From an uncultured delta proteobacterium (GTDB taxonomy: Bacteria; Desulfobacterota; Desulfobacteria; Desulfobacterales; JAFDCJ01): a DNA stretch of 64,000 nucleotides. The number at the start of each line of letters is the position of its first letter. The first letter of the stretch is position 1. This document shows, one piece after another, positions 1-12,167 of this stretch. The DNA lies in contig CAVYNY010000013.1 of NCBI GenBank assembly GCA_963769935.1, positions 576,001 to 640,000 on the forward strand. Direction: 5' to 3'. The notes beneath the pieces were generated by a model. That model was not told where the DNA came from. It worked only from the letters and a program-made list of their open reading frames with translations, and made no database searches. Position numbers and translations under genes: made by a program.

Positions 1-31
1 ACTCAATTGGTTGCAACATATTACGGCCGAA

Positions 32-50
32 CTGCAACATGGTTTTGCAG
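32..50. promoter_or_regulatory. candidate sigma54 enhancer (bEBP UAS) palindrome
   Basis: CTGCAA-N7-TTGCAG; TGCAACAT also at 12-19 and 33-40 (21 bp apart); about 170 bp upstream of a sigma54-like promoter. Confidence 0.4.
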
Positions 51-212
51 CCCAGGTTGCTGTTCGGCTGGCGGAGGACAGACTATTTCTCAGGCTGAAT
101 GCTTGTTGGTCCACAGCCTGTCGGCCGCCGCCGGTCGATAATCCATCCCGGCGGCCGTGATAGGTGTCAGAAATTGAAACACTATGCAAAAAAGGCTGAC
201 AATGCCCCGTCC

Positions 213-228
213 TGGCACAGTTTTTGTA
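213..228 (+). promoter_or_regulatory. sigma54-like promoter (variant -12)
   Basis: TGGCACAGTTTTTGTA = GG-N10-GT, upstream of the metK-like gene. Confidence 0.45.
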
Positions 229-550
229 GCAACCCCTTCGGGAAGGCAGCCCCAACGCAGCGTCTCAAACAAAGGAACGGCTCATATCGAATAAACAACT
301 GGAGCCCATGCACTGAAAACCCCGCCCTAGTAAGAAAGTGCAGGCATCGCTCTGTGGATCGGCGATTTGCCCGCGATGGCCGGGTATCATCACCGACCGG
401 TTTAAACTTAGGAGGGATCCTGATGAACCCAGCACCGAGGAACGACCATACGCAAGCGTGTGGAGCTTTCTTTATCTATGCGGTCTTTTTGCCTGCTGGC
501 GCCGATGGACCACCGGCCTCTATTCTCGAGCTGAAACAAAGGAGCATCAG

Positions 551-1759
551 ATGGGAAACAGATACGTTCTGACCAGCGAGTCGATATCGGAAGGCCATCC
601 GGACAAGGTAGCGGATCAAATTGCCGATGCTATTCTGGATCTCTATCTGGCAGCCGACCCCCATGCCAGGGTGTTCTGTGAAACCGTGATCACCGAGGGC
701 AAGGTTATCGTGGCCGGAGAAGTCTCTTCCATCGTACCGGTGCCGGAAGAAAAAATTGAGGCGGCGATCCGGGAGGTGGTCCGAGATGTCGGCTACGGAG
801 ATCCGGTTTGGGGGTTCGGTGCGGATGCCTTTGTTTTGCAAAATGATCTGAATAACCGCTGTGGTGATGGATATAACGGCGAGCAGCAAGAAGACAACGA
901 GGCCGATGCCGGGAGGCAGGGAATCGTGTTCGGGTACGCCACCGATGAAACTCGCGAAAAAATGCCGCTGCCCATCCAGCTGGCTCACCGTCTCATGAAT
1001 CGCCATGCCGAAGTGCGCCGAACAGGCGAGCTGCCCTGGCTCGGGCCGAGTGCCAAGGTCCAGGTAACCGTTAGCTATAAAAATGGTGTGCCGTCAAAAG
1101 TCGAGCAGGTGACCCTTGCCACCCGTTGCAACGCCACGGGGAACGGAGCCTCCCTGCGGGAGGCGCTAGTCGAAGCCATTATCAACCCCGTGGTCCGGGA
1201 GCCATGGCGTGCCGGGGATATGGGCTGCCTGGTAAGCCCGGTAGGCAGCCGGGGGAACGGACGGACGGGGATCCATATCGGCGTGAGCGGCCGAAGGGTT
1301 GCTTCAGACACTTACGGAGGCAGTTGCCCCAATGGGGGCGGCGGGCTTTCCGGCAAGGACCCGACCCGTCTGGAACGCTTCGCGGCCTATGCGGTCCGCC
1401 AAGTCGCCAAGAACCTGGTCGCCGCCGGGATTGCCCGGCGTTGCACGGTCCAGTTGGGCTACGCGTTGGGAAAGGCCCGGCCGGTGACCATGAACATCGA
1501 TTTTCACGGCACGGGCCGTGTTCCTGAAATAGAGACCATGGCGGTGGTGAACCGAGTTTTCGATCTGAGTCAGTCGGGCACTATCAATCGCCTGCAACTG
1601 CTGCGGCCGATATACCGCCACTCCTCCGTTTACGGTCACTACGGGAGAGAAAAGGATCCCTATACATGGGAAAATGCCGATCAGGCGGACGTTCTTCGGG
1701 GCTTGGTCGCCGTGGCCCTCTCCAGCAAAGACTGTCCATCCATCTTCGTCGCCCTGTGA
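551..1759 (+). CDS. degenerate S-adenosylmethionine synthetase (MetK) paralog
   Basis: TSESISEGHPDK, DTYGG and SGKDP motifs and full MetK length; AAGGAG RBS before ATG 551; many substrate-binding residues substituted. Confidence 0.9.
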   Translation: MGNRYVLTSESISEGHPDKVADQIADAILDLYLAADPHARVFCETVITEGKVIVAGEVSSIVPVPEEKIEAAIREVVRDVGYGDPVWGFGADAFVLQNDLNNRCGDGYNGEQQEDNEADAGRQGIVFGYATDETREKMPLPIQLAHRLMNRHAEVRRTGELPWLGPSAKVQVTVSYKNGVPSKVEQVTLATRCNATGNGASLREALVEAIINPVVREPWRAGDMGCLVSPVGSRGNGRTGIHIGVSGRRVASDTYGGSCPNGGGGLSGKDPTRLERFAAYAVRQVAKNLVAAGIARRCTVQLGYALGKARPVTMNIDFHGTGRVPEIETMAVVNRVFDLSQSGTINRLQLLRPIYRHSSVYGHYGREKDPYTWENADQADVLRGLVAVALSSKDCPSIFVAL

Positions 1760-2077
1760 CAGCCGGTTCGTTTTCCGGCCGGTTGTCAGTGACTGCCGAC
1801 CAGTGTCCACGAACGGAACCCTTGTCACAAATAAAGACACTTCCAGGTATGCGCGCGTGTAAAAGGCGGTAACTGTCAGGATAGGGATAAACGAGCCGGG
1901 CCGAAATCTCCTGCCGAGAGGCGATGGCGTTCCCCGCCACGCTACGCGACCCGACTATCGTTGACTCCCCGTCCGACACGGGATCAGCGAGCCGTCCGTA
2001 CCCTGCATGTCACATCTGTAGACAATTGCCCGCGAGCACCCCCTGCCGAAGAACTTCCCTTGCATAAATATATATAA

Positions 2078-2123
2078 AATCAATGGCTTAAAGTTTTTAT
2101 TAAACCCCGGCACACTCCTTGCG
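2078..2123 (+). promoter_or_regulatory. IHF site plus sigma54 promoter of the glycyl-radical operon
   Basis: AATCAATGGCTTA (WATCAA-N4-TTR) at 2078-2090; CGGCACACTCCTTGCG (GG-N10-GC) at 2108-2123. Confidence 0.8.
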
Positions 2124-2206
2124 TAAGCAGTTCTCGAGACGTCTCCTCGAGAGAAAAGATTTTGTGGCACTAAAAATGGCTTTCACCCTTAGCGGAGGTA
2201 TTCCAA

Positions 2207-4930
2207 ATGACTAAAAACCCTAAAAAACTAAGAGATGTTTTGGCGGATGCCGGGATCCCCATGGATTTCCAGTCCGGTGGGGTCGCTCCCGACATACTGG
2301 TGGACCGCGAAGTAAAGCGCCAACCCCATCCCCGCGTACAGAAGCTGAAAGATATCTTCATGGATACGCTTTCATCCGCCACCAACGAATTCACCTATTG
2401 GTATACGCGGGAGTACATGCTGCACGACAATGAAATCCCGGTGGTACGCCGGGCCATGGCCCTCAAGAGTGCCTTTGCACACTCCACTCCGGTCATCTTC
2501 CCGGGGGAGTTGCTGACCATGCGCAAGGCCCCGTATTTCCGTGGGTCTTTCCCCATGCCCTGGCTTTCCGAGGGTTTCTATATGGCCAAGGAGGATGAGT
2601 TCTACCAGGAGGCCCTCAAGCGCGGATCAACGTCCGTGGATGAACATTCCAAATTCGGCCAGGGTGGAGGCAACGTGCCGAAAAGCTTCGGCAAGGTGGT
2701 TTCCATCGCCGGCAAATTCGGCATGCGCCAAGAGGAGATCCCGGCTCTGCTGAAGCTGGCCCGGATGTGGTACGGCAAATCCGTCGACGACCTGGGCAAC
2801 AAGTATGAGAAGATGGTGCCCAGCTACGGCACCAAGGAAAAGATCATGCGCAACATCGTTTGCATGTTCGATTCCGGCTTCACTCTGCCCCAGGGCCGCG
2901 AGGTCATCAATTACTACTATCCTCTAGAGTACGGCTTCGACGGTATCATCGAGATCGCCCGGGAAGGGAAGGCCGAGGTGGCCGGAAGGGCTGACGGCGA
3001 CGGCATGGTCGGTATAAACCGGCTGTACAACTACGAAGCGGTCATCCTGGCCGTGGAAGGAGTCCAGGCCTGGGTGCTGAACTACGCCAAGGAGGCCCGG
3101 CGCCTGGCTGGCATTGAAACCGACGCCCGGCAGAAAAAAGAGTACGAAGAGATGGCCGAACGTCTTGCGTGGATTGGTCACAATCCGCCGCGGACCTTCA
3201 TCGAGGCCTTTCAGATGATCATCACCATCCACATGGCAGTGCTCAACGAAGACGCCATTTCCGGGATGTCCCCGGGCCGCGTCGGGCAGGTCCTCTACCC
3301 GTATTTCGAGCAGGATATTGAAGCCGGCCGCATCACCGAAGACGAAGTCATCGAGCTTCTGGAGCAGGACCGGGTCATTAAGACCTCCATCGACTGTTTT
3401 GCTTCCATGGGCGTGGTCGGCGGCGTCCTCTCGGGCAACACCTTCAATACCCTGTCCATCGGCGGCTTGGACCGCAACGGCAAAGCCGTGGCCAACCGCC
3501 TCGAATACCTGATCTTGGAAGCAGGAGCCAACAATGCCATGCCCCAGTCCACCCTGGCCCTGCTATACAACGAAAAGCTCCCGGACGATTTTCTCATGCT
3601 GGCCATGGAGGTCATCAAAACCGGTGCAGGGTATCCGGCCTTCATGAACGACGATGTAGCCCAAGTCTTCCTCAAGCACCAGTATGGCCCCGAAGGGCTT
3701 GATTATAAAGATGCCCGGGCCTGGGCCATCGGCGGCTGCCTGGAAACCTCGGCCTGCATCTGGAAACCGCTGCATCTCAACGGCAAGGAATACTGGATTC
3801 CCGGCGGCGCCGGACAGCCCACCAGCGTTGGGGTTCACTTCATCTCCATGCCCAAGGTCCTGGAGCTGACCCTGAACAACGGCAAGGATCCCAGGACCGG
3901 CGAGCAGGTCTACGCCCCTCACAACAAGGCCCTGGCCACCTATGATGAGCTCTGGGAACAATACAAGCTCTACTGGCAGGAAACCGTCCTGGCCCTGGAT
4001 CTGTGCAACAACATCCAGCACGATGTCTGGCGCAAGAACAACATGGCGATTTTCAACTCCATGCTTAAGCCCGACTGCCTGGACAAAGGGCATCTGATCA
4101 ACGAACTCGGCTACCGTTTCAACGCTTCCTTCAATGTGGAGAGCGCCGGCACCATCAACCTGGTCAACTCCCTGGCGGCTCTGAACAAGCTGGTCTACGA
4201 CGACAAGGTCGTGACTCTGGAAGAGATGAAGGCCGCCATGAAGGCCAACTTCGGGTTCAAGACCGCCCATGAGATCAACTCCTTCTCCCTGGCCGATCAG
4301 GAAAAGGCCGAAAATGCAGGCGATGAATGGGACAAGGTCCACCACCTGTGCCTGCAGGCGCCCAAATACGGCAACGACGATCCGTATGCCGACAACATTC
4401 TGCGGGAATGGGAGAATTTCTTCTGCCCGGACTGCGCCAACTATGAATCCCTCTACGGTCATCCCCTCTATGCCTGTCAGATCTCCGTCTCCACCCACGG
4501 CGCAATGGGGTCGGCCACCCTGGCAACACCGGACGGGCGTCTGGCCGGAACCACCTTTGCGGATGCCTCCATGTCGGCTTACCCCGGCACGGATCGCAAC
4601 GGGCCTTTTGCCCTGATGAACTCGGCGTCGGTCTGGGATCATTCCATGTCCCAGAATTCTCAGCTCAACATCAAGATCCACCCCACCGCCATCAAGGGGT
4701 TGGAGGGCGCCAGGAAACTCCTGGACATGATCCGGGCTTACATGCGCAAGGGCGGCTTCCATGTCCAGTTCAATATCGTGGATTCCAAGGTGCTCAAAAA
4801 CGCCCAGGAGAACCCCCAGAACTATCGCGACCTCATGGTCCGGGTGGCGGGCTTTACCCAATACTGGGTCGAAATCGGCAAGAGCGTACAGGATGAACTC
4901 ATCGCCAGAACCGAATACGAAGGAGTCTAA
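2207..4930 (+). CDS. hpdB: glycyl-radical enzyme, 4-hydroxyphenylacetate decarboxylase large subunit-like
   Basis: 907 aa PFL-like; C-terminal RVAGF glycyl motif; GGCLE thiyl loop; QGRE, SGNTF, VHF and NVES motifs as recalled for HpdB/CsdB; small subunit follows directly. Confidence 0.85.
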   Translation: MTKNPKKLRDVLADAGIPMDFQSGGVAPDILVDREVKRQPHPRVQKLKDIFMDTLSSATNEFTYWYTREYMLHDNEIPVVRRAMALKSAFAHSTPVIFPGELLTMRKAPYFRGSFPMPWLSEGFYMAKEDEFYQEALKRGSTSVDEHSKFGQGGGNVPKSFGKVVSIAGKFGMRQEEIPALLKLARMWYGKSVDDLGNKYEKMVPSYGTKEKIMRNIVCMFDSGFTLPQGREVINYYYPLEYGFDGIIEIAREGKAEVAGRADGDGMVGINRLYNYEAVILAVEGVQAWVLNYAKEARRLAGIETDARQKKEYEEMAERLAWIGHNPPRTFIEAFQMIITIHMAVLNEDAISGMSPGRVGQVLYPYFEQDIEAGRITEDEVIELLEQDRVIKTSIDCFASMGVVGGVLSGNTFNTLSIGGLDRNGKAVANRLEYLILEAGANNAMPQSTLALLYNEKLPDDFLMLAMEVIKTGAGYPAFMNDDVAQVFLKHQYGPEGLDYKDARAWAIGGCLETSACIWKPLHLNGKEYWIPGGAGQPTSVGVHFISMPKVLELTLNNGKDPRTGEQVYAPHNKALATYDELWEQYKLYWQETVLALDLCNNIQHDVWRKNNMAIFNSMLKPDCLDKGHLINELGYRFNASFNVESAGTINLVNSLAALNKLVYDDKVVTLEEMKAAMKANFGFKTAHEINSFSLADQEKAENAGDEWDKVHHLCLQAPKYGNDDPYADNILREWENFFCPDCANYESLYGHPLYACQISVSTHGAMGSATLATPDGRLAGTTFADASMSAYPGTDRNGPFALMNSASVWDHSMSQNSQLNIKIHPTAIKGLEGARKLLDMIRAYMRKGGFHVQFNIVDSKVLKNAQENPQNYRDLMVRVAGFTQYWVEIGKSVQDELIARTEYEGV

Positions 4931-4931
4931 A

Positions 4932-5195
4932 ATGAAGAAACTATCATACCGCGACACGCGCAACTATGCGCCCATTGATGTGATCAAGGGCATCGACCTG
5001 CAAACCAAAAAATTCGTTATGGGGGATGCGGAGGCACCCGAGGGGGCCGAGATGATGCCCAAGTGCAAGTTCTGCAAAAACTTCACGGAGACCGAGGACT
5101 ACCTGGGAATCTGCGAATCGTCCAGGAATGATCCGAAGTTCATGTCTTACGGCGACATGTATGCGACGACTTGCGAAACATTCGAGGCCAGATAG
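4932..5195 (+). CDS. hpdC: HpdC-like decarboxylase small subunit (87 aa)
   Basis: ATG 1 nt after the large-subunit stop, AGGAG RBS; CKFC...GIC...TC C-terminal Fe-S ligands; resembles HpdC/CsdC. Confidence 0.8.
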   Translation: MKKLSYRDTRNYAPIDVIKGIDLQTKKFVMGDAEAPEGAEMMPKCKFCKNFTETEDYLGICESSRNDPKFMSYGDMYATTCETFEAR

Positions 5196-5207
5196 CGTTG
5201 CTGACCG

Positions 5208-5245
5208 CCGATGGCGGACGCGGCGGGGTGCCGCCCCGCCATCGG
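5208..5245 (+). other. GC-rich intercistronic hairpin
   Basis: CCGATGGCGG ... CCGCCATCGG inverted repeat, no U-tract. Confidence 0.55.
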
Positions 5246-5316
5246 GATAACGCGGGGCATCGGCCAAGGCCAAAAGCCACACGGCGGACGGCCCTGCAAG
5301 AAAGGGAGATGTTATT

Positions 5317-6645
5317 ATGGATGACACGAGAGCAAAAAGATACGGGTGGTCGGTTGTGGCGGCCTCCTGGCTGGCTGTGTTCTGCCTCTTCGGCTACCGG
5401 GCGACGTTTGCCATTCTCAAAGGCCCCATGAGCGCCGATTTAGGCTGGAGTCAGACCCAGGTCACCCTGGGGTATTCTCTGATGATGATGTTCTATGCCG
5501 TGACGGCCTTTTTCAGCGGGATGATTCTGGACAAATGGGGCACGAAGCCGGTTTACACGGTTGCCGCCATTTTTGGCGGGCTGGGCTTCTACACCACCAG
5601 CCTGATCAGCAGCCATCTGGCCTATTTGTTTACTTTCGGGCTTTTGGCAGAGATTGCAACGGGCATGCTGTGGGTGACGTCCACGGTTTCGGTGCGCAAA
5701 TGGTATGTCGGCAGATCCTACGGCACCATGTGGGGCATCGCCTTTGCCGGAGCGCCCATGGCCCAGTTTGTCCTGGCGTATGTCACAAAGGCGGCCCTGC
5801 GGGGCGATGCGGCGGACACCTGGCGGGGGGCAATGGTCCTTCTATCGGCGATCATGTTCGTTCTGCTGGTACTGGCGGTGATCCTGGCGAAGCGCAGCCC
5901 GGAAATATACAACATGAAACCCTTCGGGGAAATCCCCACCCGCGGGGGTGCGGCCCCGGCCGCGGAATACGAGTGGGGGGTCAAGGAGGCTTTTTCGACC
6001 TTTGCCGTCTGGGGGGCCATTCTTATGTTCTTGACCAGCATGATGGCCGAATTTCTCATCTGGACCCAGGTGGTCAGTTTCTGGGTGGCCGATCTGGGCT
6101 GGACCCGGGATACGGCGGTGCAAAGCTACGCCGTCATCGGGCTAGTGGGCATTTTCAGCATGCCCCTTTTGGGCATCGTGGCCGACAAGGTGGTGCAGGC
6201 GGTGGGCAACGAAGTCAAGGGGCGGAAGATCATGCTGTTCGTGGGACCGTTAACCGGGATCTTCGCCTGCGTCTTCCTGCTGATGTCGGGCAAAACCATC
6301 ATCTGGGCCTATGTGGCCTGCGTGATTTTCGCCATCTACTGGGCCATCGTTCCCGGCGGGGTCGTAGGGTACTGCGGGGCGGTTTACGGCCGCAAGACGC
6401 TGGGCAAAATCTGGGGGCTGTCCACATTAATTGTCATGGGCATCGGGCCTTTTACCGGTTCGTTCATCGGCGGCTGGCTCAAGGATGTCTCCGGCAGCTA
6501 TACCTATTCGATCTTTTATGCTCTGGGCTCTTTCGGTGTGTCAATGCTTCTGGCTCTGGCCTTGCCCATACATGCCCGGCAGAAGAGGTTCGCTCGGGTT
6601 TCGCTGGGTTTGCCCTCCGGTGAGGTGGCTCCGGCAGTGAAGTAA
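5317..6645 (+). CDS. MFS transporter (OFA/monocarboxylate-like)
   Basis: about 12 hydrophobic segments; GMILDKWG motif A. Confidence 0.9.
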   Translation: MDDTRAKRYGWSVVAASWLAVFCLFGYRATFAILKGPMSADLGWSQTQVTLGYSLMMMFYAVTAFFSGMILDKWGTKPVYTVAAIFGGLGFYTTSLISSHLAYLFTFGLLAEIATGMLWVTSTVSVRKWYVGRSYGTMWGIAFAGAPMAQFVLAYVTKAALRGDAADTWRGAMVLLSAIMFVLLVLAVILAKRSPEIYNMKPFGEIPTRGGAAPAAEYEWGVKEAFSTFAVWGAILMFLTSMMAEFLIWTQVVSFWVADLGWTRDTAVQSYAVIGLVGIFSMPLLGIVADKVVQAVGNEVKGRKIMLFVGPLTGIFACVFLLMSGKTIIWAYVACVIFAIYWAIVPGGVVGYCGAVYGRKTLGKIWGLSTLIVMGIGPFTGSFIGGWLKDVSGSYTYSIFYALGSFGVSMLLALALPIHARQKRFARVSLGLPSGEVAPAVK

Positions 6646-6874
6646 CATTTCGGAACGGCAAGTTAAAGGCTCCCGGTTTTGGCCGCCGTCATCGAGTCCG
6701 GCGAAGCGGGACGGCAGCGTAAACCAAGGCGTCCGGAATCGGGAGCTGCACTTAATGTTCATTCGCGGCGGGCAACCGTCGCTTCTATCGGCGATCCGGG
6801 GATGCGCACCAACCCGCGGCCCCTCAACCAAAGGCCTCTTGCGAGGCAGCCACAAACAGAAGGAGGAGTGATCG

Positions 6875-7888
6875 ATGAAAACTGACAAGCCCTCGGTGAC
6901 GGACAGGCAAAGCGTGGATATCACTTCAGGTGAGCCCAAAGCGCGGTGCCCTTTGGGGTCGGCGGTCCAGGGGCTGATTTTTGATATCCAAGGTCACTCC
7001 ATCCACGACGGTCCGGGCACCCGCACCACCGTCTTCATGTCCGGCTGCCCGTTGAGCTGCATCTGGTGCTGCAACCCTGAGGGGCTGCATCGCCAGCCGG
7101 TGGTTATGTACAAAGAGAGCAAATGCGTGTGCTGCGGCAAATGTATCGAAGCCTGCCTTTACGGAGCCGTCAGTGTCTCCAGGGAGGGCAAACTCGAACG
7201 GGTTCGAAGCCTGTGTAACATCTGCCGGACCTACGAATGCATCGGGGCCTGTTACCATGAAGCCATCGGACTCAGTGCCAAGTACTATTCGGTTGATGAC
7301 CTGATGCGCGTCTTTCAAAGGGACCGCCATTTCTGGGGTTCGCGGGGTGGGGTGACCTTCAGCGGCGGCGAGCCGCTTATGCAGCGGGAATTCATGACCG
7401 CAATGCTGAAGCGTTGCAAGGAAGGCTATATCCACACCTGCATCGAAACCACCTCCTGCCTGGATACCGATTACTTCCTCGGCATCATGCAATATGTCGA
7501 GTGGGCGTTCACCGACATCAAGCATATGGACCCGCAGGTCCACCGGAAGATCACCGGCGTGGACAACAAGCTGATTCTGCATAACATCCGACGCCTAGTT
7601 GAGGCTGACTGGGGCGGCTTTATCGTGCCGCGGATTCCCGTGGTACCCGCCATCAACGATACGGATGAGAATATCCGGGCCACGGCGCAATTCGTCCGAA
7701 GCTGCGGCCTGGAACTGATCAATATCCTGCCGTTTCACCGGCTCGGCGAATCCAAATACCGCCAACTGGGTCAGTGTTATCAGCTGGCCGATCAGGCGTC
7801 GCCTGCGGCGGAACAGATGAATCACCTGAAGAAGATAATCGAGGATGAAGGGCTGTACTGTTTTGTGGGCTGGGAGACCCCCTTTTGA
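6875..7888 (+). CDS. hpdA: glycyl-radical enzyme activating enzyme
   Basis: HDGPGTRT, CPLSCIWC radical-SAM motif, ferredoxin insert (CVCCGKC, CNIC..C..C), GGVTFSGGEP. Confidence 0.9.
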   Translation: MKTDKPSVTDRQSVDITSGEPKARCPLGSAVQGLIFDIQGHSIHDGPGTRTTVFMSGCPLSCIWCCNPEGLHRQPVVMYKESKCVCCGKCIEACLYGAVSVSREGKLERVRSLCNICRTYECIGACYHEAIGLSAKYYSVDDLMRVFQRDRHFWGSRGGVTFSGGEPLMQREFMTAMLKRCKEGYIHTCIETTSCLDTDYFLGIMQYVEWAFTDIKHMDPQVHRKITGVDNKLILHNIRRLVEADWGGFIVPRIPVVPAINDTDENIRATAQFVRSCGLELINILPFHRLGESKYRQLGQCYQLADQASPAAEQMNHLKKIIEDEGLYCFVGWETPF

Positions 7889-7975
7889 ATCCGTCTCCGT
7901 TGTTCAGATATAATGCCGCCATTCCCGAAACCGTGAGTGAATTCCCGCGCACCAAGTCATGCGAAGGAGACCGCC

Positions 7976-8533
7976 ATGGATAAAATTGCCACGGCCTGTG
8001 AGGCACTGATCCGGCAAATCATCGACCTGGAATGGGATATGTTCAGTCAGGTTAAATCTCAGAGCGAGGCAGTCTGCCAGCGACAGCCGGGAACCTTTCG
8101 CAGGATGCGCTGGATGAGCCACTGTGTGCTGCCATCGGCTGTCTTGCAGTCCTACCGGGATGATTTGAAGGCGGCCCAGGAGGCCGGGCGCAACCTGATG
8201 ACGGAAAAATACGCCCGAATGCAGGGATTGCTGCCCCCGCGGCAGGACAACCCGCTCATCGAAGATATCGTGGAAGTGGAAAGCGGATGGCTCAACGAGC
8301 TCATTGGAAAATATCCACGGATCTTCACTCGGGCCCAGGCGAGCTTCTGTCATTATGCCCGCAGCGAGTTGGGTACCTACTCGGAACACACCATTGAGCT
8401 GTATTGTGCCCATGTGAAAGAGGCCGAGGCAATCGGTCGCAATCTGGTCAGGGAACGATATACTCGCCTCTTCGGTCAAATGGGCATAGGCACCATCGAA
8501 GACGTAGATCGCGGTCGGGCGGCCCGTGGTTGA
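7976..8533 (+). CDS. DUF4125-like protein
   Basis: IIDLEWDMF..CQ..F..MR and GRNLMTEKYARM motifs; AAGGAG RBS. Confidence 0.75.
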   Translation: MDKIATACEALIRQIIDLEWDMFSQVKSQSEAVCQRQPGTFRRMRWMSHCVLPSAVLQSYRDDLKAAQEAGRNLMTEKYARMQGLLPPRQDNPLIEDIVEVESGWLNELIGKYPRIFTRAQASFCHYARSELGTYSEHTIELYCAHVKEAEAIGRNLVRERYTRLFGQMGIGTIEDVDRGRAARG

Positions 8534-8797
8534 CTGCAGACTGCATACTGGAAATGGTCACATTTAAATATGGTCAGTGGAAGCCCTGGCTGCCCCTGGC
8601 CGCCGACGTTAGCCATAAAGAGTCGAGACGGCTTCCAAGGCAGCTTATTCAACAGGTGGCCATTCTGATACCGGATAACCGGTAATATGTTGCCGATAAA
8701 CTGGATATTTCCTTATTAAATAGCAACAAATTACCATCTATAGAATTATACTTGATTTTCAATTTAATTGGTAATATATTGCTGATTAGAACATTAG

Positions 8798-9187
8798 ATG
8801 GAGGTTAATCAGCAAAAAATGTTTTATAAAATCGATTTCTCGGTAGCAACGAGTGGTCAGATCGAAGCTGCCCTCTGCAAGCGCTTGGAAAGCATACGGC
8901 TTTCCCGTAACATAACCCAAGCACAACTCGCTGAAGAAGCCGGCGTCTCGCCTAGAACCATCGGACGGCTTGAAAAGGGCCAAGGTGTTTCCATGGATAC
9001 TTTCATCCGGATTATGATGGCGCTTAGCATACAGCAAAATCTTGAAGCCCTGTTGCCGGATCCAAAGGTGAGACCAATCGAACGGGTTGGCATGGGCGCC
9101 GGAGAGCGTCAGCGCGCACGCCCTGCTAAATCGATGGATGAACTTCCAACTTGGTCGTGGGGTGACGGGGAGGACGATGGTGAATAA
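8798..9187 (+). CDS. XRE-family HTH regulator (HipB-like antitoxin)
   Basis: RLSRNITQAQLAEEAGVSPRTIGRLEKG; overlaps the start of a HipA-like remnant; true start may be 8819. Confidence 0.85.
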   Translation: MEVNQQKMFYKIDFSVATSGQIEAALCKRLESIRLSRNITQAQLAEEAGVSPRTIGRLEKGQGVSMDTFIRIMMALSIQQNLEALLPDPKVRPIERVGMGAGERQRARPAKSMDELPTWSWGDGEDDGE

Positions 9188-11593: not shown

Positions 11594-11625
11594 AGCTATA
11601 ACTATCAATATAAATGGAGTGTCCT

Positions 11626-11859
11626 ATGCGCACTATTCAAATGACACTTGATGATGATCTCGTAAAAAAGGTCGATGCTATAGCAAATGAGCTTCAAACA
11701 ACACGCTCTGCGTTTACGCGAGATGCATTGCGGGAAGCGGTTCAACAATACAACATTCGCCGTCTTGAATTGAAGCACCGCCAAGGCTACGCGGTTCGCC
11801 CAGTCAATGAAGAGGAGTTCAGTGTCCGGGAAAAAGAACAAAATTGGGGGGATGAATGA
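11626..11859 (+). CDS. ribbon-helix-helix antitoxin
   Basis: MRTIQMTLDDDLV..TRSAFTRDALR; ATGA overlap with the toxin gene. Confidence 0.85.
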   Translation: MRTIQMTLDDDLVKKVDAIANELQTTRSAFTRDALREAVQQYNIRRLELKHRQGYAVRPVNEEEFSVREKEQNWGDE

Positions 11860-12167
11860 AGAGGGGTGAGATCAGATGGTACAAATTCAAAGCTGCTGAT
11901 AAGAAACGGCCGGTTTTAATTTTAACCCGCAATTCCATACTGGAGTATCTTGGGGAAGTCACCGTGGCCCCGATCACCACGACCGTTCGGGATATACCTA
12001 GCGAAGTATTCCTCTCAAAACAAGACGGGATGATAAAGGACTGCGCAATAAACTTCGATCACCTTCAAACGGTGTCGAAGGGAAAGATTGGATCGCTGAT
12101 AACAACACTTTCTATAGATAAATTAGAAAAAGTGAGAGCGGCCGTACAATTTGCCCTGAACCTATAA
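11856..12167 (+). CDS. mazF: MazF/PemK toxin
   Basis: MKRGEI..KKRPVLIL..VTVAPITT. Confidence 0.9.
   Translation: MKRGEIRWYKFKAADKKRPVLILTRNSILEYLGEVTVAPITTTVRDIPSEVFLSKQDGMIKDCAINFDHLQTVSKGKIGSLITTLSIDKLEKVRAAVQFALNL

Follow-up and report, generated by a model that had tools for sequence, protein, structure and literature searches.

The window analysed here is a stretch of 64,000 nucleotides from the genome of an uncultured delta proteobacterium of the Desulfobacterales (contig CAVYNY010000013.1, positions 576,001 to 640,000), whose first 8,533 nucleotides carry a gene cluster built around a predicted 4-hydroxyphenylacetate decarboxylase (HPAD; HpdBCA), a glycyl radical enzyme (GRE). Six plus-strand genes run in the same direction, accompanied by two sigma54-type sites, an IHF site and an element resembling an upstream activating sequence (UAS), all as stated in the initial annotation. 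That annotation, made from the window alone, identified the sigma54 sites correctly and overlooked the divergent activator gene that lies 360 bp before the window in the adjoining sequence L001. The features are the following, with positions counted in the window unless L001 is named:

L001 18240-19640, minus strand, divergent: PAS-AAA-Fis sigma54 activator (PF00158, PF02954, PAS), ending 360 bp before window position 1
213-227, plus strand: sigma54-type -24/-12 site upstream of the MetK-like gene, one mismatch, without an hpd-type enhancer upstream
551-1759, plus strand: MetK-like gene, 402 aa (TIGR01034, 383 bits against a cut-off of 309)
1823-1839, plus strand: distal enhancer (UAS), TGTCAC-N8-ACA, predicted activator site
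2008-2024, plus strand: proximal enhancer (UAS), TGTCAC-N8-ACA, predicted activator site
2078-2090, plus strand: IHF consensus, between the enhancers and the sigma54 site
2108-2122, plus strand: sigma54 -24/-12 promoter of hpdB, predicted by motif scan
2207-4930, plus strand: hpdB, 907 aa (NF033715, 1571 bits against a cut-off of 1150)
4932-5195, plus strand: hpdC, 87 aa (NF033716, 69 bits against a cut-off of 50; PF18671, PF18524)
5317-6645, plus strand: MFS transporter, predicted 4-hydroxyphenylacetate importer, 442 aa (PF07690)
6875-7888, plus strand: HpdA radical-SAM activase, 337 aa (best family NF033717, 395.7 bits against a cut-off of 420)
7976-8533, plus strand: DUF4125 protein of an hpd-linked subfamily, 185 aa (PF13526, 164.8 bits against 25)

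By its sequence, the core of this cluster is an HPAD of the HpdBCA family and thereby of an already known kind. HpdB scores 683 bits on the indoleacetate decarboxylase (IAD) model NF033718 (cut-off 1100) against 1571 on the HPAD model, and among solved GREs it is closest to the Clostridium scatologenes (Cs) HPAD (2y8n_A, 1023 bits), the next structure reaching 292 bits and arylacetate decarboxylase (AAD, 7e7l_A) 242. Its key residues are Cys511, Glu513, Glu645, His544, Arg231 and Gly882. We compared the substrate pocket in 63 relatives taken from a survey of 66 related hpdB loci in GTDB genomes (three were dropped for short hits), with numbering read from the 2y8n_A alignment. Arg223, Ser344, Gly345, Phe405, Cys503, Glu505, His536, Phe537 and Glu637 of the Cs enzyme are identical in the window and all 63 relatives, and Phe214 is kept in 62 of the 63. 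The roles of Cys503, Glu505 and Glu637 in HPAD are described in PMC13450708 and PMC6181972, and Glu637 is the residue that separates HPAD from IAD (PMC6181972). The candidate identity as IAD was rejected on the score, on the presence of Glu645 (IAD is without Glu2, with Leu616) and on the presence of hpdC, as IAD has no small subunit; AAD was rejected on the 242 bits against 1023 for HPAD and again on the small subunit. PhdB, which the relevant passage of PMC13598205 describes as lacking the equivalent of Glu637, is set apart by that description and the presence of Glu645, not by a comparison with the PhdB sequence.

These pocket residues support the initial proposal that an arylacetate is imported and decarboxylated, and point specifically to 4-hydroxyphenylacetate as the probable substrate. 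The window's subclade might instead prefer another hydroxylated arylacetate, such as 3,4-dihydroxyphenylacetate or a lignin-derived analogue, by an HPAD-like mechanism: Leu takes the place of Cs Ile219 in the window and 62 of the 63 relatives, with a one-residue insertion close by, so the substrate range may differ somewhat, the hosts are environmental and non-gut, and the regulator and porin partners are the subclade's own. However, the phenol- and carboxylate-binding residues, Glu637 included, are all invariant and Leu at the Ile219 position also occurs in the clostridial relatives of the set, which makes such a preference very unlikely in our view.

The small subunit is where the window enzyme departs from the solved one. 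HPAD gamma binds two [4Fe-4S] clusters, one through four cysteines and one through three cysteines and a histidine (PMC13450708). The window HpdC is a member of the HpdC family, but its four cysteines and zero histidines do not provide this canonical two-cluster set. In alignment with 2y8n_B, His3, Cys6, Cys19 and Cys36 are replaced by Tyr, Thr, Asp and Pro (or a gap at the last), and the C-terminal cluster ligands Cys45, Cys48, Cys61 and Cys81 are retained. Across 63 relatives (two further loci and all but five of the 66, those five ending inside hpdB) the loss is nearly all-or-none, with all four N-terminal ligands present in 29, none in 33 and one of the four in a single sequence; the four C-terminal ligands are kept in all 64 HpdC proteins, the window's included. 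HpdC thus appears likely to ligate only the C-terminal cluster, as a one-cluster variant of HPAD and not the canonical form. The initial annotation had the hpdC-like gene right and missed this feature.

The large subunit varies together with the small one. Met267 of HpdB is found at 32 of 33 one-cluster and 0 of 27 two-cluster loci, position 469 is Val in 32 of 33 one-cluster and Cys in 23 of 27 two-cluster loci, and residues 267-268, 452 and 469 co-vary with cluster type, but the HpdB tree divides the groups by no more than about four label changes. How many changes of type are counted depends on the tree used: one on the HpdC tree, two with the ligand columns masked, four on its C-terminal half and four on the HpdB tree, so that the one-cluster type may have arisen once or several times. 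Among its carriers are Tannerella forsythia ATCC 43037, Crenobacter and Desulfobaculum. The possibility that DUF4125 stands in for the lost cluster was rejected, as DUF4125 occurs at 18 of 34 one-cluster and 7 of 29 two-cluster loci. A literature search covering passages of three papers, with subscription papers outside its reach, returned no published description of a one-cluster HpdC. The Selmer group reportedly compared the Tannerella system and may have noted such a subunit; an earlier mention of this kind would limit the novelty of the type. Separately, we observed one-cluster hpdB-hpdC-MFS-hpdA sets in the cultured betaproteobacteria Crenobacter and Craterilacuibacter (Neisseriaceae; L045-L047), with a different sigma54 activator downstream, and hpdC in two tandem copies at L015 (10711-11257).

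The remaining genes belong to a recurrent cassette. At the 66 loci, 59 of which have at least 2.5 kb of upstream sequence, tblastn counts of neighbours gave the activase at 59, the small subunit at 58, MFS at 44, DUF4125 at 25, an alginate-export-type porin at 21, DUF4037 at 14 and MetK at none. Two more HpdB proteins above cut-off among 400 genomes of the order are encoded in the arrangement activator-hpdB-hpdC-MFS-hpdA-DUF4125, without MetK, and the cassette extends to Tannerella, Bacteroidales and Melioribacteraceae. The window activase carries the S-adenosylmethionine (SAM) cluster motif and auxiliary ferredoxin cysteines, and these cysteines are invariant in 35 sequences; its NF033717 score lies below cut-off, as do those of all four subclade relatives tested (376-407 bits), compared with 530 bits for a clostridial activase. 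The best NCBIfam matches of the MFS protein are monocarboxylate and OFA types, all under cut-off; the pairing of HPAD with an MFS transporter and the hypothesis that it takes up arylacetates are already published (PMC6181972).

DUF4125 was found at 25 of 45 loci of the window's HpdB subclade (43 placed by tree, two by identity) against none of 21 outside it, and, where at least 5 kb of downstream sequence is present, at 22 of 34 against 0 of 17. Its proposed role as a conserved companion was thereby borne out, and of the two co-occurrences that the initial annotation wished to see surveyed, that of DUF4125 was recovered and that of the MetK-like gene was not (0 of 68 loci, the 66 plus the two of the same order). 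On a tree, a branch supported at 99 separates the 34 hpd-linked DUF4125 sequences from 30 others, the best-scoring of 55. The family as a whole is general and not specific to HPAD: 55 of 401 genomes of the order encode DUF4125 and three encode HpdB, and its other neighbours include genes for GREs, a carboxyltransferase, an HMG-CoA-lyase-like protein, methylmalonyl-CoA mutase and hydroxyglutaryl-CoA dehydratase, with DUF4037 as a frequent partner. LrcL (DUF4125) and LrcM (DUF4037) of a limonene/perillyl-CoA operon (PMC12583861) offer a parallel for expression of DUF4125 within an anaerobic acid-catabolism operon, but that operon has no decarboxylase and the window genome no DUF4037 match; neither DUF4037 nor the porin was found in the window genome by a family search that was silent in every control genome as well. 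The modelled DUF4125 structure is all-helical (predicted local distance difference test, pLDDT, 90) and has no clear match in fold comparison (Foldseek best E 0.37; VIA-align best Z 4.2, root-mean-square deviation 1.9, 56 residues aligned), Atlas matches being DUF4125 clusters only. Among the matches listed, the literature on GRE decarboxylases does not name DUF4125. Holophagales-type loci (L026, L027, L029, L030, L031, L033) carry two tandem DUF4125 paralogs, the second with its conserved motifs lost, together with DUF4037, divergent from hpdB. In two genomes of the order (L200 1-10109, L201 5993-16001), DUF4125 and DUF4037 lie with two GREs, a phosphotransferase-family gene, two MttB-family methyltransferases and an aldehyde oxidoreductase, as a GRE cluster without an assigned function.

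The divergent activator has the hallmarks of a sigma54 enhancer-binding protein (GAFTGA at 227, Walker A, a Fis-type helix-turn-helix, HTH, and a sensor domain) and is 54-62% identical to the activators adjoining hpdB in relatives; it is likely to be the cognate regulator of hpdB. The palindromic element TGTCAC-N8-ACA occurs exactly twice in the 64 kb against 0.18 expected (1 of 100 shuffles reaches two). Within 500 nt of hpdB it was found at 15 of 17 loci with an orthologous activator (at least 50% identity) but at 2 of 49 loci without one, both Holophagales contigs ending inside hpdB; these counts describe co-occurrence without a statistical test, many of the loci are kin, and the upstream regions used for counting are those from which the element was first noticed. 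Sigma54-type sites number two in 64 kb against 0.64 expected, a count that is not significant by itself as 15 of 100 shuffles reach it (the genome background for a one-mismatch site is 0.03 per kb), and of 33 relatives scanned, 18 have a similar site 71-130 nt ahead of hpdB. The IHF consensus occurs four times in the window against 2.5 expected and is meaningful by position only. The site near hpdB in relatives and the co-occurrence of enhancer and activator support the proposed sigma54-type control of hpdB, which we regard as probable. Scans for sigma70 promoters and terminators gave matches at chance level only, and an Rfam search found no match in L001 or window 1-9000. In Clostridioides difficile, hpdBCA of the same enzyme family is induced by 4-hydroxyphenylacetate from a SigA-type promoter, independently of SigL and through a required AAAAAG-N13-CTTTTT repeat, its regulator being left unidentified in that study (PMC7925072), whereas a PAS-sigma54 activator with the TGTCAC-N8-ACA enhancer is found here and induction by the same compound is predicted. 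The main text of a sigma54 regulon survey of Clostridiales mentions neither hpd, hydroxyphenylacetate nor cresol (PMC6615313).

Between the activator and these enhancers lies the MetK-like gene, whose product belongs to the MetK family by profile (TIGR01034, three Pfam domains) and by modelled fold (pLDDT 85). MetK contacts SAM through H14, E55, Q98, I102, D163, R229, F230 and D238 (PMC8727953). Only H14 and E55 are kept here, with the Q98/I102 loop aligning poorly; six of the eight contacts are lost, which agrees with the initial description of a remodelled active site, whose changes are uncommon elsewhere: among 265 other MetK hits, D163 is retained by 257, F230 by 244 and D238 by 251. Compared with Escherichia coli MetK (1RG9, TIGR01034), the three-domain fold and E8, H14, D16, K17, E42, E55, K165, R244 and K265 are shared, Q98, I102, D163, R229, F230 and D238 are replaced, and the substitutions D118R, K245R, K269R and D271E are present as well. 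The protein further has an additional conserved C-terminal tail, its nearest intact relatives are 49-51% identical, and an intact housekeeping MetK is encoded elsewhere on the same contig. It forms a clade with P0002 (60% identity) and P0003 (57%) with support 99 on a quick tree, and a profile search of 1.84 billion representatives added the fragment P0121 as a fourth member. All four share the C-terminal tail and have lost D163, F230, D238 and K245 with differing substitutions (K245 to R, T, A or M). Identity to P0002 and P0003 is 66/84 and 63/88 at conserved MetK columns and 85/175 and 80/179 at variable columns, values that fit selection on the fold and not on a new active site. The MetK-like protein is thus likely, as judged from these residues, a catalytically dead pseudoenzyme. 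Degenerate MetKs recur, since at least six of 24 sites are altered in 20 of the 265 other hits. P0012, P0144, P0152, P0153, P0165, P0174, P0191 and P0255 are further homologues, in which 10-14 of 24 active-site positions differ, P0012 standing apart from the MetK-like clade on a long branch.

The gene is likely a roughly 2-kb insertion that parts the hpd activator from its enhancers and is unrelated to the conserved cassette, because activator and hpdB are 2567 nt apart here but 298-950 nt apart in the 14 relatives (of 19 with an orthologue) whose activator is adjacent and divergent, and both enhancers lie past the stop codon of the MetK-like gene. Misassembly is unlikely because one contig of run X1, which is possibly related to the source sample, covers the MetK-like/hpdB junction (positions 1227-2265). 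The initial annotation saw in it an accessory of the decarboxylase, and had itself named lack of conservation beside homologous GREs as grounds for abandoning the idea; the survey found no such conservation, and the gene was rejected as a conserved hpd partner. A dedicated accessory that is expressed together with the decarboxylase and supplies SAM, or senses SAM or methionine, would explain why the gene is adjacent and co-oriented with its own sigma54-type site, and why frame and fold are intact, the fold being kept in a four-member clade with a shared tail; the survey moreover covered hpdB loci, with the neighbourhoods of P0002, P0003 and P0121 outside it. Yet no MetK of any kind stands at the 68 hpdB loci, the enhancers lie beyond the gene, and the loss of six SAM contacts with substitutions that differ within the clade speaks against SAM synthesis or one new chemistry. 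We therefore consider a dedicated accessory highly improbable and retain the insertion of a pseudoenzyme gene as the preferred reading.

Searches for a relative of the MetK-like protein with informative context returned none in 22 same-genus genomes (best 43%) or 400 genomes of the phylum; in 400 genomes of the order, the sole match (51%) is an intact MetK led by a SAM riboswitch, and a metagenome scan with generic motifs over 2 of 64 parts gave only 39-49% matches and was uninformative. A decayed SAM-I riboswitch in the leader (about 307-505) was considered but is not claimed: its colinear similarity to the leader of an intact metK (L164 6740-6838, G350) is marginal, as scores at least as high came from 12 shuffles in 500 and from 63 genomic 300-mers in a random 2000, with z between 1.5 and 2.9 over 12 settings, and Rfam gave no match in this leader. 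A 49-codon open reading frame with a good ribosome-binding site but no Pfam match (423-572) overlaps the MetK-like start.

The genome of the host, 8.0 Mb in size with 96.7% completeness and 5.4% contamination, encodes rpoN, dsrA above cut-off and dsrD, the latter two supporting the initial assignment to a probable sulfate reducer. HpdB is absent from 22 same-genus genomes (best match 34%), which together with transposase remnants upstream suggests horizontal acquisition of the hpd locus. Signs of a plastic region are a DDE/DUF4277 transposase and an IS200-like fragment in L001 (7823-9505 and 17214-17738), an XRE/HipB-like HTH gene (8798-9187) and a pair of RHH and PemK/MazF-like toxin-antitoxin genes (11614-12167).

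The initial annotation expected the p-cresol formed to be degraded further. For cresols, the presumed route of attack in sulfate reducers is addition to fumarate by HbsABC (PMC4148979), but the only two PFL-like GREs in the genome are HpdB and HypD (above cut-off), with no HbsABC-type enzyme between them. No p-cresol methylhydroxylase was recognised among 16 FAD_binding_4 matches, of which three were compared with the PDB (EncM-like, DprE1-like and glycolate/lactate dehydrogenase-like) and five judged by eye from their N-termini. As no entry enzyme was found, p-cresol is likely an end product. Were the decarboxylase instead a first catabolic step, leading from p-cresol through 4-hydroxybenzoyl-CoA to the benzoyl-CoA pathway with sulfate, this would be in keeping with dsrA and dsrD, with an encoded Oah (the benzoyl-CoA marker) above cut-off, with several HcrA-like genes (best 895 bits, below the cut-off of 995) and with an acyl-CoA ligase gene near hpd at 6 of 66 loci; given these and the completeness and contamination of the genome, an entry enzyme may have been missed. 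The missing fumarate-addition GRE, the lack of a cresol hydroxylase among the three FAD oxidases compared and the presence of the same cassette in Tannerella, Bacteroidales and Melioribacteraceae argue otherwise, and we judge the catabolic route unlikely. At L210 590-2017 (G000:C16), in a likely sulfate reducer, we noted a flavoprotein of EncM type that scores 422 bits against 6fye.

Taken together, positions 1823-8533 most probably constitute an hpdB-hpdC-MFS-hpdA-DUF4125 HPAD operon for import of 4-hydroxyphenylacetate and its conversion to p-cresol with a one-cluster HpdC, the MetK-like gene being a separate dead insertion; we assign this reading a probability of about 0.72. Several observations weigh against it: the Leu and insertion at Ile219; the below-threshold activase; the way in which the enhancer was counted; the 12 subclade loci that lack DUF4125 among the 34 with 5 kb or more of downstream sequence; the one-mismatch sigma54 site before the MetK-like gene, with no clear terminator before hpdB, which makes read-through possible; and Oah and the HcrA-like proteins. 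In the proposed mechanism, the divergent PAS-sigma54 activator would sense the substrate, bind the two TGTCAC-N8-ACA sites and, with IHF, open the promoter at 2108, while the MFS protein would import 4-hydroxyphenylacetate as proposed in PMC6181972. HpdA, by analogy with its family, would install the Gly882 radical using SAM from the intact housekeeping MetK encoded on the contig, and Cys511, Glu513 and Glu645 would run a Kolbe-type decarboxylation (PMC13450708), with HpdC predicted to bind HpdB with its C-terminal four-cysteine cluster only. The p-cresol would leave the cell, and the host would profit either from the protons consumed, which could serve pH control or the proton-motive force as hypothesised for HPAD (PMC6181972), or from inhibition of competitor growth. 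DUF4125 might serve anaerobic acid-catabolism modules in general as a soluble helper, with enzyme maturation or upkeep as its most plausible task.

With the C. scatologenes HPAD (2Y8N/2YAJ) the locus has in common the large and small subunits, the activase, the catalytic Cys, both Glu, the His, the Arg and the RVAGFTQ glycyl loop; it differs in its one-cluster instead of two-cluster HpdC, in the MFS gene before the activase, in DUF4125 and in the cognate sigma54 activator, and it lacks the hpdDEFG/J/K genes of the C. scatologenes cluster (PMC13285125). The Olsenella scatoligenes HPAD cluster has an MFS gene too, proposed for arylacetate uptake (PMC6181972). T. forsythia (L017) comes closer, with an HpdB 75% identical, the same hpdB-hpdC-MFS-hpdA order and a one-cluster HpdC, but it has neither DUF4125 nor a window-type activator within 8 kb; its HPAD is published, and the cluster ligands go unmentioned in the consulted part of PMC6181972. 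What goes beyond the known HPAD core is therefore the one-cluster subtype, the predicted dedicated sigma54 sensor with its enhancer and the DUF4125 companion, and a MetK-extended system fails.

A bolder version, which we put forward tentatively and at rather less than even odds, is that these loci represent a widespread p-cresol-forming HPAD subtype of Gram-negative anaerobes, in which the one-cluster subunit is active and the second cluster dispensable, HpdB residues have co-varied, and a dedicated sigma54 sensor and enhancer and an own DUF4125 subfamily of unmatched fold take part, the adjacent MetK pseudoenzyme family having a non-catalytic job. More than half of the relatives sampled have the one-cluster form, and cultured Crenobacter, Desulfobaculum and Tannerella forsythia are among its carriers; as a natural variant it offers a ready control. 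The activator and enhancer are a candidate 4-hydroxyphenylacetate sensor and a possible biosensor part, of interest as the corresponding C. difficile regulator is unidentified (PMC7925072). A likely misannotation is also corrected, as the MetK paralog scores above the NCBIfam cut-off and would receive the name SAM synthetase. For the family, predicted p-cresol production would extend to sulfate reducers, Ignavibacteria and Bacteroidales.

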